From the NCBI GenBank assembly GCA_963693365.1, contig CAVNZM010000002.1:4294259-4358258 (forward strand): a stretch of 64,000 nt of DNA. Reading direction: 5' to 3'. Positions within the stretch are counted from its first letter, which is position 1; every line of letters starts with the position of its first letter. Positions 15,301 to 63,300 of this stretch are shown in pieces. The notes under the pieces were generated by a model. The model ran no database searches. It was given only the letters and a program-made list of their open reading frames with translations, and was not told where the DNA came from. A program made the translations under genes and the position numbers. The DNA comes from Amoebidium appalachense (Eukaryota > Protista > Ichthyosporea).

Positions 15301-18300
15301 TAGACTGAAGAAACACAAGTTGTGGGTGTGTGGTGGATGGATAGGCCGTGAATCCGTGCCTGTGTGCTGTGCCCAACATGTAGCGGATGAAGGTGGCCTT
15401 GGGTACCGTGGGGAGGGTGTCTGACGGAAGGTTGGGGTTGGTGCAGTCCACGGCCAAGACACCACCGTACAGCCGGTTGCGGGCGTATAGGGGCGGGGCA
15501 CCACTCGTCCTGTTTTTTTTTTTTTTTTTTTTTTTTGGGGGGGGGGGATGGGAGGGGGGGGGGGGGGGGGGGGGGGGGGGGGGTATGTGTTTGTGGGGGG
15601 AGGGAGGGGGGGGAGGGGGGGGGGGGGGGGGGGGGGGGGGGGGGAGAGGAGGAAGGGGATTTGGGCAAATCGAGAAAGGTGATCTGGTGTAAAATACATG
15701 CTACAGCGATGTATTAGGTCAGCCACCGAAAAGAAAAGCTAGAGGGACCCAGCGCATAGCCAGCCTGAGTATTTCGGTCTAGCTGCCAGACAAGGGGAAT
15801 ACATGCACCTTATCCCTTTTATAACGGCACCAGAAGTTTCTCCTTTCACCTGAACTGCACCAGATCCCCCCCCCCCCCCCCCCCCCTCCCTATCTCTCCA
15901 TCTCCCACCAAGCGTCGGGAGGCACACAAACACACACTGTATGGGGGTCACACGTTGCCTTTCTGCATGAACACTTTAGAAACACATACCGTTTGTACTC
16001 TCCAAGGGTATCAAGGAGGGGGCAGTCTCGATTCTCTGTCTGGGGGGGCTGGTCGTGTACAGAAATGTGGGTAGGTGAGGTGAATGCGTGGATGAGGGAG
16101 AGAGGTGAGGGGTGATGAGGGGGGAGGATGGGTGGGACACGGGGAGCAGGAATGGAGATCACAACTATTTGTTGTTAACAATTTCAACCCTCCCCCTCCC
16201 CCCCCCCCCCCCCCCCCCCCCCCCCCCCCTCCCCCCACCTTCTCTCCCCCTGTGCTTGCCCTCAAAATCCTTTTCATTCCCGGTTACTTCGCACGGTTCC
16301 TGAGGTGTGTGGGATTAGCCCGGGAATTCTGGTAGTGGCTTTTCACATACACGGCGTACTTCTGCGTACTTCTGTGTGTGTGTGTGTGTGTGTGTGTGTG
16401 TGTGTGTGTGTGTGTGTGTGTGTGTGTGTGTGTGTGTGTGTGTGTGTGTGTGTGTGTGTGTGTGTGTGTGTGTGTGTGTGTGTGTGTGTGTGTGTGTGTG
16501 TGTACGTGTGTGTGTGTGTGTCTGTTCGTGTTTCTGTCTGTGTGTCTGTGTGGGTGTGTGTCTGTGGTGCGCGCATCAAAGTGTGAGTGCATGCATGTGT
16601 CGGTTTGTGTGCCTGGTCTATGCCAATGAACAAAAATATTTCCTTTCTGCCTTCTTCCCCGTTTGAGTGTGCACTACGACGAGAGAATGAGGAGGGTTGA
16701 TTGAGGACGGAGTCCCGGGGGGAGGGGGGGAGAAGGGGGAGAGAGAGATGGGGTTGGGTGGGGTTGGGTGGGTTTGGGTGGGATGGGGGGGAGGGGGGCA
16801 TACAGGAGGCACGGGGGTACCCAGGCATGCAGTGAAGTGGCGCAGGTGGAAGTCGTAGACAAAACTCTTGATGTGGAGGCGGTGCTTGAGTGAGGCCATC
16901 TCAACGGCAAACATGCGCTCCTCACGATGGGTCGGCCGTGGGACACGGGTAGCTGTGTTTGTGTTTGTGTGTGTGTGTGTGTGTGTGTGTGTGTGTGTGT
17001 GTGTGTGTGTGTGTGTGTGTGTGTGTGTGTGTGTGTGTGTGCGTGTGTGCGTGTGTGTGTGTGTGTGCGTGCGTGTCCTGAGGGTGGGTGGGTGGGTGGG
17101 GGGCGGGGAAATAAGTCAGTGAGTGAGTGAGTGAGCGAACGAGTGTGAGTGAGTAAGTGAGTGAGTGGGCGAGTAAGTGAGTGAATGCGTGGGTGGGTGG
17201 GTGGGTGGGTGAGAGTGTGAGTGAGTGTATGAGTGTGTGAGTGTGAGTGAGTGAGTGAGTGAGTGTGAGTGTGAGTGTGAGTGTGAGTGTGAGTGTGAGT
17301 GTGTGTGAGTGTGTGTGTGTGTGTGTGTGTTTTTGTGTATGTGTGTGTGTGTGCGCGCGCACGCGCGTGTGCGCGTATGTGTGCACGGGGGCAGGCGGAG
17401 GGGGAGGGGAGGGGGGAGGTATGAGTGAGTGAGTGAGTAAGTGAGTGAGTGAGTGAGTCAGTGAGTCAGTGAGTCAGTGAGTGGGGGAGTAAGTGAGTGA
17501 GTGAGTAAGTGAGCGAGTGAGTGAGTGAGTGAGTGAGTGAGTGTGAGCATGTCTGTGTGTGTGTGCCGGCGCTGGTGCGTGCATATGTGCATAACATATC
17601 CGTGCGCATACGTACTTGGTCAAAAACCACTGTGCATATGTGCGTGTGTCCCAACTGGAAGGTACGTGATTTGTGATATGGAAACGACAGGGAGCAGCTC
17701 AGAATGGGTCTCATAAATGACAATACGCATGTGTCCGTGCACGTGAGACAATATGTTTCCCCACGCTCTTTAACATGTTTGTATTCTTTCATTTTTGGCT
17801 CTCATTACAGTAATAGACTCTGTTAATTGTTCCCTCCCATTTTTTCTTTCCCTCGGACCTTTTCTTTTTCTTTTTCTTTTTTTTTTTTTTTTGGGGGGGG
17901 GGGGGGGAGGGGGGGGAGGGATACCCGACTGGGAGGTCTCGAGCCAAGCAGGCACGATGTTTGCATACAGCCGGGCCGATGACATGGCATAGACATCCAC
18001 ACACACATTGCGCTCCTGCCAATATGCATCAGCAACTAACCCCCCCCCCTCCCCCCCCCCCCCCCCCCCCCCCCGGCTCGTTTCCCCTCTCTTTCCCCCC
18101 GCCCCCTTCACCACCACCAAAAAGTTCAGATGATCCTAATGACCACATGGTAGGCTACATGTCAACCATTAATTACCGCGTGCGTAACCCCCCCCCCCCC
18201 CCCCCCCCCCCCCCCCCCCACCAACTATGCAGGAAGCGAAAAAAATACACAACATAAAGAGTAAATGGAACTGCACGCACATTCAGTGACAGCTTCACAA

Positions 18301-60300: not shown

Positions 60301-63300
60301 GGGGTGAAAACCTCTGGTCATCCTTGTCCTTCTCCCATGCCTGGTGGTCTATGGCCTTTGAGTAGTGCCTGGGTGGGGGCCATGTGCTTGTGATGCAGTA
60401 CTCCACCGTCACATGCTGCTTCCACAGCAGAAGCACCTTGGCTGTCACCGTGCGCTTGCCCCCACTCTCCCTGCTCCCACCCCAAACGGTCAGGTGTGTG
60501 TGTGTGTGTGTGCCGGCCAAAGTAAATGCAGAGAGGGTATGCTGGTTTCAAGGAGACGCTGTGTTGCCCATTGTGTGTATGCAATGTCTTTGGACCTTTA
60601 TAAATAATTCAATAGTGCTATCTTTCTTAGTGCCCCCATACGACTTTACAGGCGCTATACGAGTTAAAGGTGCCAGATCCATCTAGGAGGTTCTATCCCC
60701 TTTAAAGCCCACGCACTCCAATAACGTGAAGAAGATGTGCAGCAGGCACTACTGCACCCACAGTCCCCGACACAAACATCCCAGTACCCCCCTCCCCCCC
60801 CCCCTCCCCCCCCTCTCCCCCCCCCCCCCCCCCTGCTTTACACTTCCAACAACTACCCTTATCCTCTAAACCCACCACACCCCAATCTGCAGTGTTCGAC
60901 CCCACTCCCCTTACTCCCTTTCCCCCTCCCCTTCCCCTCCCCACCCCTTTCCCCCGTCCATCCCCACTCCCAATCCGGCAACCCGTCCTCTCCCTTCCCT
61001 TGCCACCCCCCCCACCCACACACACACACACACACACACACACACACACACACACACACACCAGGCAACGCAAATCCAGCACCCACCCCAACACGACGTT
61101 GTCTATCTTGTATCCCTCCCTCAGCCTCAGCGACAGCACATGGGGTAGGCCAGTAGCCAGAGTGTATTCCTTGTACTGCTTGCGAATAATCCCCAGGGGG
61201 GGTGGGGGTTCCTTTAATGCCCATGGAAACGATGAGCTTAGCGGCACGATACCCTTCACGCCTGTACTTTCACTTAACAACACTTCTTGTGTGCGTAGCG
61301 GTAATCCTAACATGTCTGCCTCCCCCGGAGAATCATCTTCGCTTTCTCCGTCCGCGGCGCGTGGGAACGTGGGGTTGGGGGTTGCAGTTGCTCTGCGGCA
61401 CACGAGTGTGTGTGCACACAGGGTACGGTGGTAGATGTTCATGCTGAGAGGGTCCTCAGATGTGTTGCTGACGGAGTCCACGAGCCAGGCTGTAACGTTG
61501 GGGGGGCAGCTGTTGGGTGGGGGGGGGGGGGGGGGGGAGGGGTCAGTGGGGGAGTAAGGTGCATTGCACGTGTACAGCGGTACGCACGTGTACAGCTGTA
61601 CGCACGTGTAGAGCTGTACGCACGTGTACAGCTGTACGCACGTGTACAGCTGTACGCACGTGTACAGCTATGCACGTGTACAGCTGTATGCACGTGTACA
61701 GCTGTATGCACGTGTGGAGATGCATATTGGCATGTGGGATGCATGGTCGGTGATTGTGTCAGGCCCTGTGCCCGACACCACGTGACCAAACATTACAGGC
61801 CGGTGTCAGCCTGCACCCACCCCCATCCTTTCTCTCCCCCCCCCCCTCCACCCCCCTTCTCCCCCAAACACACACACAGTACTCACGGCCACCTCCATAT
61901 CCTCACGTCGTGCCCCTCTCATAATACCCCCTGGTCTATTAAACTCGACATGCCTCCCATCACTGACAATGTGACTCCCCCCGTCCCTCCCCTCTCCCCC
62001 TCCAACCTCCCCCCCACCCTCCCACCCCCGACCCCCGACCCCCCCACCCCCCATCACCCCCACACACACACACACACACCTGTGGGGGAATGGTGGGGGC
62101 AGGGCCAGACACTGAGAGCTAAATAGCAGATTGCCTGCCGTAGCTGCAGCTGCAAAGTGCAGCAGCTCTGTGTCGGCCACATAGCCAAAACTGGCCCACG
62201 GTCGGTAGCCCTGCCCTACCTGAAAAGAACAATCAGAAGATACATAGCGGGTTGAGGGTGAACCATGAGAGCGTGGGTATGTAAAAGGTATGCGTGTTCT
62301 TATGTGTGGGAGCGGGGGGAGGGGGGGCGAGGGGGGGGGGGGGACTTTTCTACGAATTTGAGCTGTTCTCTGTGTATTGATACTAGAGCTACTATGCTAC
62401 CAGTCTAAGATGCTTCCTTTTTCAGCTCTTCATAGAGCGCTTTCTCCAGGTTGGACGTGATCTCCTTGCTTCTCTTGTTACATTGTTTTACAAGTTCCAT
62501 TTGCTCTCTTTTTTTTTTCTTCCTTGTGCATATGATAGTGAACATGTGAATGTCTGTATGGTTTAGGAACGTGGTAATATAGTCCCCTCTGCCTTCTTCA
62601 TGTGCATCAAAAAACCCATCCTCAAACCCTTCCTCTCAAACACAGGTCATCCGCAACCCCTCCCCCCCCCCCCCCCCCGCCCCCCGGCACACCAGCGCCA
62701 TGCCTCCCGTAACACCTTACCATTTCCACTTATTTCTATCTTCAGTATTTGATAACATCCACCAGCAACCCACTCAACCAGCCGTCCCCCCCCCTCCCCA
62801 ACCAAAAACAACAACAAAAAAAAAAAAAAAAAAGAAAGAAAGAAAGAAAGAAGAAGAAGAAGGAGGAAAAGGAGGAGGAGAATCAACTGATGCACGTGTG
62901 CGACCCACACCACCCCATTACACACGCACCTGGATAAAGTTCAAAGGAAACCCATATCTGCTGAAGAGAGTCAGCACCGAGTCGAATGCCAGACTAGCAT
63001 TGTCCAGGGTCACCACCCCGTCAGTCAGCACCACCAATGCACCAAACATGCTGTCTGGCAGCAGCTCCAGGGCAAATATTCCGTTCTGCAGTGTTGCTAC
63101 TAGCCCCGGTTCCATGTCGTTCCCACCTCCACCCCCTAGGTGGTAACAGTGTGTGAGTGGGGTTGGTGAGGAGAAAGAAAAAAGCAAGTGAGGTGGTGCA
63201 CTGGCTAGCTTTTTTTTTCTTTGTAGAAAAGGGTTTGTAGATTCTGGTACCGTTCCCCCCACCCCCCACCACCACCACCATTTAGGTTATGGTTGCACTT

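Follow-up and report, generated by a model that had tools for sequence, protein, structure and literature searches.

How are introns recognised when their 5' splice sites (donors) pair poorly with U1? The question is raised by the SZT2 gene of the ichthyosporean Amoebidium appalachense, which lies in a window of 64,000 nucleotides (nt), the whole stretch of DNA analysed here (assembly GCA_963693365.1, contig CAVNZM010000002.1, positions 4,294,259 to 4,358,258; coordinates below are those of the window). The original prediction held that weak and non-canonical SZT2 donors run into a C-tract, and that homopolymer tracts may serve as a general code for defining donors. Our analysis gives good support to the first part of the answer: within this gene, donor strength is tied to a proximal run of C.

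9170..63918 (-): SZT2 gene (KICSTOR subunit), 80 modelled exons, ~3,480 amino acids (aa), 5' end beyond the window

Colinear homology along the protein identifies the minus-strand gene as SZT2, the name it had been given beforehand. The model is colinear with the Absidia protein P0007 (E = 2.8e-44), which itself matches human SZT2 chains (E = 2e-23), and exon 2 on its own matches SZT2 chains (E = 0.002-0.004); among named homologues of an SZT2 exon, P0002 of Sphaeroforma arctica ranks first, with 44% identity over 121 aa. The protein matched no Pfam family, and protein searches did not find a full-length SZT2 from this organism. The gene model was made by hand, as an automatic exon parser missed exons and was set aside, and its frame is open through exon 78. 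The 3' end of the model (9170-9856) is tentative: exon 79 as chosen has an in-frame stop. Scoring covered introns 1 to 78 (mean 560 nt); the final one, between the tentative last exons, was excluded. A possible further short exon before CAG/GTGTGT (31630-31700, within an 883-nt intron; the slash marks the exon-intron junction throughout) was left out of the model.

The window is rich in C/G homopolymers and (CA)/(GT) repeats, and homopolymer lengths are given as in the assembled sequence. An intron was placed in the C-run class if a run of at least ten C begins no more than 40 nt after its donor. This class holds 26 of the 78 introns, compared with 8.6 ± 2.6 when the introns are rotated (0/3000 rotations as high); the same count for runs of at least ten G is 4/78, with 4.6 expected and no excess. 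Counted by run, 28 of 103 intronic C-runs begin within this distance (7.4 expected), as do 5 of 49 G-runs (3.5 expected), and runs of at least eight A or T show no excess near donors of the modelled introns (2/16 and 0/13 runs). The donor-proximal C-runs of this gene are strand-specific and enriched directly downstream of the 5' splice site. They start 3-31 nt from the donor in the 26 introns, a wider interval than the ~3-16 nt originally given, and in just four more introns the first run starts at 44-115 nt. The symmetry of C and G that had been named beforehand as a refuting outcome was not seen. The G half of the proposed homopolymer code is not seen, because G-runs show no enrichment beside donors. 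The predicted mean unpaired probability of the first C-run is 0.86, and membership of the class shows no link to intron length (p = 0.80) or to the class of neighbouring introns (p = 0.13). All 12 donors with C-tracts and all five controls cited in the original prediction are found on the minus strand where it placed them, and the 12 all fall in the C-run class, whose members are these:

46850..46880 (-): donor TCA/GTCTGT + C24, RNA-supported
45845..45902 (-): donor GAG/GTAGAC + C50, RNA-supported
45298..45363 (-): donor CGT/GTACGC + C35 at +32, RNA-supported, listed joint
44521..44602 (-): donor CAT/GTAAAT + C54, RNA-supported, listed joint
43791..43816 (-): donor AAC/GTACCC + C23, RNA-supported
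58370..58399 (-): donor GAG/GTCCAA + C21, Sphaeroforma homologue colinear across the junction
59577..59626 (-): predicted GC donor CAG/GCAAGC + C26, frame continuity only
42002..42032 (-): predicted GC donor TCG/GCATGT + C25, frame continuity only
32555..32589 (-): predicted GC donor CAG/GCATGC + C30, frame continuity only
60263..60311 (-): predicted donor GAG/GTTTTC + C26, from the model
56054..56089 (-): predicted donor GGG/GTATCA + C27, from the model
55357..55383 (-): predicted donor TGG/GTAGCA + C16, from the model
41679..41722 (-): predicted donor CAG/GTCCTG + C38, from the model
37808..37835 (-): predicted donor GAG/GTAACC + C24, from the model
36460..36496 (-): predicted donor ACG/GTACGT + C12, from the model
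35438..35474 (-): predicted donor CAG/GTTTTG + C28, from the model
34655..34686 (-): predicted donor AAG/GTACTC + C27, from the model
33189..33220 (-): predicted donor AAG/GTTTAG + C11, from the model
31842..31875 (-): predicted donor AAC/GTAAGA + C22, from the model, weak exonic side
30458..30486 (-): predicted donor ATG/GTGAAT + C22, from the model
29865..29907 (-): predicted donor CAG/GTGTGC + C16, from the model
28805..28845 (-): predicted donor CAG/GTCCGT + C22, from the model
19652..19693 (-): predicted donor CCC/GTAAGC + C13, from the model
19303..19349 (-): predicted donor TAG/GTGGGC + C34, from the model
17893..17924 (-): predicted donor CGG/GTATCC + C15, from the model
9990..10037 (-): predicted donor CAG/GTATGG + C25, from the model, outside the range of the original prediction

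That weak donors precede C-tracts is borne out within this gene. Donors of the class pair with U1 at -5.1 kcal/mol and the others at -7.9 kcal/mol (p = 1.5e-5), and a leave-one-out matrix gives them a score of 4.3, compared with 8.2. A G at +5 is present in 12/26 of them and in 44/52 of the others; for T at +6 the counts are 6/26 and 36/52. The weaker pairing is kept (17 vs 44 donors, p = 0.006) after dropping runs that overlap +1 to +8 together with the (GT)n donors, the latter excluded since they match the consensus by themselves, and the difference becomes sharper (22 vs 39, p = 6e-7) once the 17 donors judged uncertain are removed. All three predicted GC donors fall in the class (p = 0.034), and none of the 21 donors stronger than -9 kcal/mol has a C-rich flank. 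A broader measure, C exceeding G in the downstream flank, applies to 20/22 donors lacking +5G and to 26/56 that have it, to 14/15 donors with A or T at +5, and to 13/15 donors lacking the exonic -1G compared with 33/63 that carry it. Changes to A or T at +5 and the missing -1G beside such flanks cannot be explained by C spreading into the donor. Two of the donors cited in the original prediction are to be read differently: AAT/GTAAGA at 54101, cited as a consensus-like control, pairs with U1 at only -4.3 kcal/mol, and AAC/GTAAGA at 31875 is not a real counter-example because its exonic side is weak (-4.6 kcal/mol).

RNA support comes from a comparison of the interval 42940-47140 with the contigs of one sample (X1-X3), presumed to be RNA. 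A 10,577-nt contig of run X1 aligns to eight exons in this interval. Three of its joints (donors 45363, 44602 and 43394) are listed as having GT-AG ends, its record coordinates hold an identical offset to the hand model in 8/8 pieces and fit donors 46880, 46501, 45902 and 43816, and its loose ends fit donors 47523 and 42959. Joints, constant offsets and loose ends together therefore support 9 of the 78 donors. Five are in the C-run class, and two of these, AAC/GTACCC and CAT/GTAAAT, have neither -1G nor +5G. The other four are without a C-run:

47523 (-): donor CAG/GTGGGT, X1 contig
46501 (-): donor CAG/GTGTGT, X1 contig
43394 (-): donor CAG/GTGGGT, X1 contig
42959 (-): donor ATT/GTATGT, X1 contig

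Even between these five and four, donor strength differs (p = 0.03). In four of the five, a GT that would pair more strongly lies within 80 nt upstream and is unused. Use of other, stronger donors, a further outcome named beforehand as refuting, was thus not seen: the 5/5 checked C-class donors are those that are spliced. The remaining 69 of the 78 donors, all three GC donors included, were placed by frame continuity, to which the Sphaeroforma alignment adds for 58399. Support within the C-run class is accordingly 5/26 by RNA contig and one by the Sphaeroforma homologue, while 20/26 were chosen by hand and have neither kind of support.

Several points weigh against a role of the run in recognising these donors. 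Everything comes from one gene, with numerous tests on the same 78 introns, and the gene was modelled after the earlier claim was known, which is a source of bias. The U1 energies use the canonical U1 5' end, which may not be that of this organism. Most intronic C-runs (64/103) lie in mid-intron, and runs occur outside the gene too, although at 0.7-1.8 per kb compared with 3.5 per kb in its introns. As to the dependence on distance and length that had been proposed, donor strength among the 26 introns shows no trend with distance (p = 0.14) or with C count (p = 0.89), lengths being as assembled. A C-rich flank is missing from 6 of 19 weak donors, and one of these six (ATT/GTATGT, 42959) has RNA support. 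Under the strict class definition, the drop in exonic match does not reach significance (1.85 vs 2.15, p = 0.14), and the -1G effect is weaker for the +21 to +80 window (p = 0.08). A stronger unused GT lies nearby in 9/26 C-class introns and in 15/52 others (p = 0.61); counting upstream sites only, the numbers are 9 and 8 (p = 0.08).

We favour, at a rough probability of 0.45, the explanation in which the C-run is an intronic enhancer: a C-binding protein would keep the U1 small nuclear ribonucleoprotein (snRNP) in place at donors whose own pairing is poor. The excess of C and not G behind donors, together with donors that are weaker on both sides of the junction, argues for selection and relaxed constraint. 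Runs are evidently supplied by slippage, to which C/G-runs and (CA)/(GT) repeats of this genome would be prone. Those landing behind a donor may have been retained, whereupon the donor could decay and the intron become dependent on the run. By analogy, the reader might be a PCBP-like KH protein or an RRM protein like TIA1 or Nam8, the yeast counterpart of TIA1/TIAL1. The closest rival, possible though somewhat less so, needs no protein reader. A C/A-rich stretch, unpaired and nearly free of GU, would leave the donor exposed with no competitor downstream, and G/GU-rich introns would need strong donors. This passive flank would account for the exclusion of G-runs as well (any run of at least ten G is present in 2/26 C-class introns vs 27/52 others). 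GT falls to 2.1 per 100 nt in the flanks of the class from 11.3 elsewhere, the cost of opening the donor is 4.9 vs 6.5 kcal/mol (p = 0.028), and when the same donor is placed in all contexts, C contexts are more open for two of three test donors; for the third, however, there is no effect (p = 0.88). Accessibility accounts for only about half of this difference in pairing, and the two classes still differ in net energy (-0.2 vs -1.5, p = 0.026). In a joint model C fraction is significant (p = 2e-4), but GT density beside it is not (p = 0.22), nor is the best downstream decoy, and A-runs, equally suited to a passive flank, are not enriched.

The enhancer explanation must also be set beside three others. 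Slippage and local duplication might fix the polarity of each intron, with exons stopping the spread, C/A invading the donor and the spliceosome tolerating it. Within an intron, the skew of C+A against G+T is indeed correlated between stretches 130 nt apart (rho 0.41-0.49), whereas the correlation disappears when an exon of similar length lies between them (rho -0.03), polarity being reset at each exon. Of the C-class departures from +6T, 12/20 are to C, and runs change length fast, because two 99.5% identical copies of one repeat end in C8 and C21. For mammalian G-rich elements, PMC3606033 argues for an origin in mutational bias, though with later selection near donors. Such a neutral by-product gives no reason for a threefold excess of C and not G at donors, for the +5 changes to A or T or for the weaker exonic side, and we consider it unlikely. 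An artefact of gene model or assembly, in which stronger upstream GTs are the true donors or the runs are too long or not real, is very improbable. Homopolymer lengths are unreliable on some sequencing platforms, and the RNA check reaches 9/78 donors with the GC donors outside it, but the five checked C-class donors fit the contig to the base at one constant offset, and a sequencing artefact would not track donors and strand. Scarcely credible is an intron-bridging stem of the zebrafish type, in which complementary end repeats pair and join the splice sites. Intron 5' ends are indeed enriched in (GT)n (11/37 runs) and 3' ends in (CA)n (10/40), and G-runs stand ahead of a late C-run in four introns (62929, 25690, 15989, 13686). 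Yet (CA)8 and (GT)8 share an intron in 1/78 cases, C12 and G12 avoid each other (together in 8 introns, C only in 36, G only in 19; odds ratio 0.18, p = 7e-4), and pairing between intron ends is no stronger than in a shuffled set (-30.4 vs -29.4, p = 0.31), so that bridging is largely refuted for the C-class of this gene. Pairing across exons was rejected too, and mirror-image insertion of one element in both orientations was ruled out because 3' ends show no G-run enrichment (3/49).

Comparison with known systems provides insight into the kind of element involved, at the level of the available portions of the papers cited here. G-runs reportedly buffer weaker donors (a result attributed to Xiao et al., 2009); elements of the hnRNP H/F type resemble the present ones in being homopolymer-like and flanking donors, but here G-runs are not enriched at donors and accompany strong ones. 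Mammalian G-rich elements of the donor flank can be exchanged for U-rich ones, and mutational bias feeds them (PMC3606033). TIA1 recruits U1 snRNP from U-tracts downstream of the donor at ~5% of exons (PMC2964331); the likeness to TIA1/TIAL1 is a pyrimidine tract directly after the donor, the difference that it is U-rich there, whereas no T-run here lies near a donor. Human PCBP1 enhances splicing from a position downstream of the 5' splice site; mutation of the C-rich element lowers inclusion moderately (PMC13751310). The elements of PCBP1/2 (hnRNP E) share composition and position with ours, but are short motifs around regulated cassette exons, unlike the pure C11-54 runs behind one in three donors of this single gene, which appear to be constitutive donors. 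Bridged introns, (AC)m-(GT)n in zebrafish and (GGG)m-(CCC)n in human (PMC4691745), also bear simple repeats at their ends; in SZT2 the orientation is reversed, with (GT)n at the 5' and (CA)n at the 3' end, and since complementary repeats avoid each other and ends pair no better than shuffled ones, these introns are not of the zebrafish bridging class. The nearest protist case is Euglena gracilis, with a C-rich polypyrimidine tract and GC-AG introns (PMC11170887): C likewise stands in place of U near splice sites, but the tract is described at the 3' site only, and no link to donor strength is mentioned. We found no literature description of donor-proximal poly-C in ichthyosporeans, in a search outside which most subscription papers fell, and the available portions of PMC5560861, PMC4739763 and PMC11244446 describe no such motif. 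By this analogy the donor-proximal C-run likely behaves like a donor-flank enhancer of the TIA1/hnRNP H/PCBP type, in a poly-C version.

The 3' ends of the introns carry repeats of their own. A branch-like CTRAY motif occurs at -50 to -5 in 36/78 introns, compared with 5/78 in mid-intron, and in 4/19 introns with C or (CA)n at the 3' end compared with 32/59 others (p = 0.017); in 6 of these 19 there is no CTRAY further upstream either. The scarcity is partly simple displacement by the repeat. Acceptors 42130, 26631, 18373, 16953 and 14307 have a long (CA)n directly before them and no pyrimidine tract or branch consensus; an RNA contig loose end supports the acceptor at 42129. Before a predicted acceptor at 15510-15540 comes a C-run and then ~24 A; a pyrimidine tract is absent. 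Intronic minisatellites at 39122-39472, 47147-47509, 61566-61715 and 42778-42935 have units of 24, 19, 18 and 28 bp rich in GCAC/GTGC/ATGC. The repeat ending in C8 and C21 is a non-coding element of ~184 bp with three minus-strand copies in the same orientation (36276-36459, 35823-36006 and ~27630-27750); the third, diverged copy brings the ends to C8, C21 and C34, and a C-run also precedes two of them. It might be a small mobile element, either targeting poly-C or seeding it. A repeat motif had 0 matches in metagenome scans, and another scan gave a single 11-residue match, L001, nothing usable. Elsewhere in the window, a sugar transporter gene (PF00083; ~3500-6163, minus strand, two predicted introns) encodes a protein 69% identical to one of Amoebidium parasiticum. 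Its donors TTG/GTATGT (5653) and AAG/GTGGGT (4843) look strong and have no C-run, and its second intron contains G-runs, which fits the two-class picture.

The poly-C behind weak donors is well supported within one gene; the donor-flank enhancer is a known kind, and a code shared by the lineage is a hypothesis. New beyond the original prediction are the avoidance between long C- and G-runs, the resetting of polarity at each exon, the lack of pairing from end to end and the scarcity of branch motifs where introns end in C or (CA)n. A broader scheme, which we hold to be rather doubtful, would be a simple-repeat code at both intron ends: poly-C standing in for +5G, +6U and -1G in about a third of introns, C/(CA)n standing in for the branch site, and one polarity per intron keeping the runs unpaired, all read genome-wide by altered parts of U1/U2 or by a C-binding factor devoted to the task. 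The finding matters for annotation because donors such as AAC/GTACCC and CAT/GTAAAT score as non-sites. Polarity by intron offers a natural experiment with two classes, in a group that can be cultured. If the pattern is true genome-wide, routine recognition of donors in a close unicellular relative of animals depends on a homopolymer enhancer, made of C instead of the U or G of mammals, and one could test on a large scale whether mutational junk gives rise to enhancers that then allow the core splice signals to decay.

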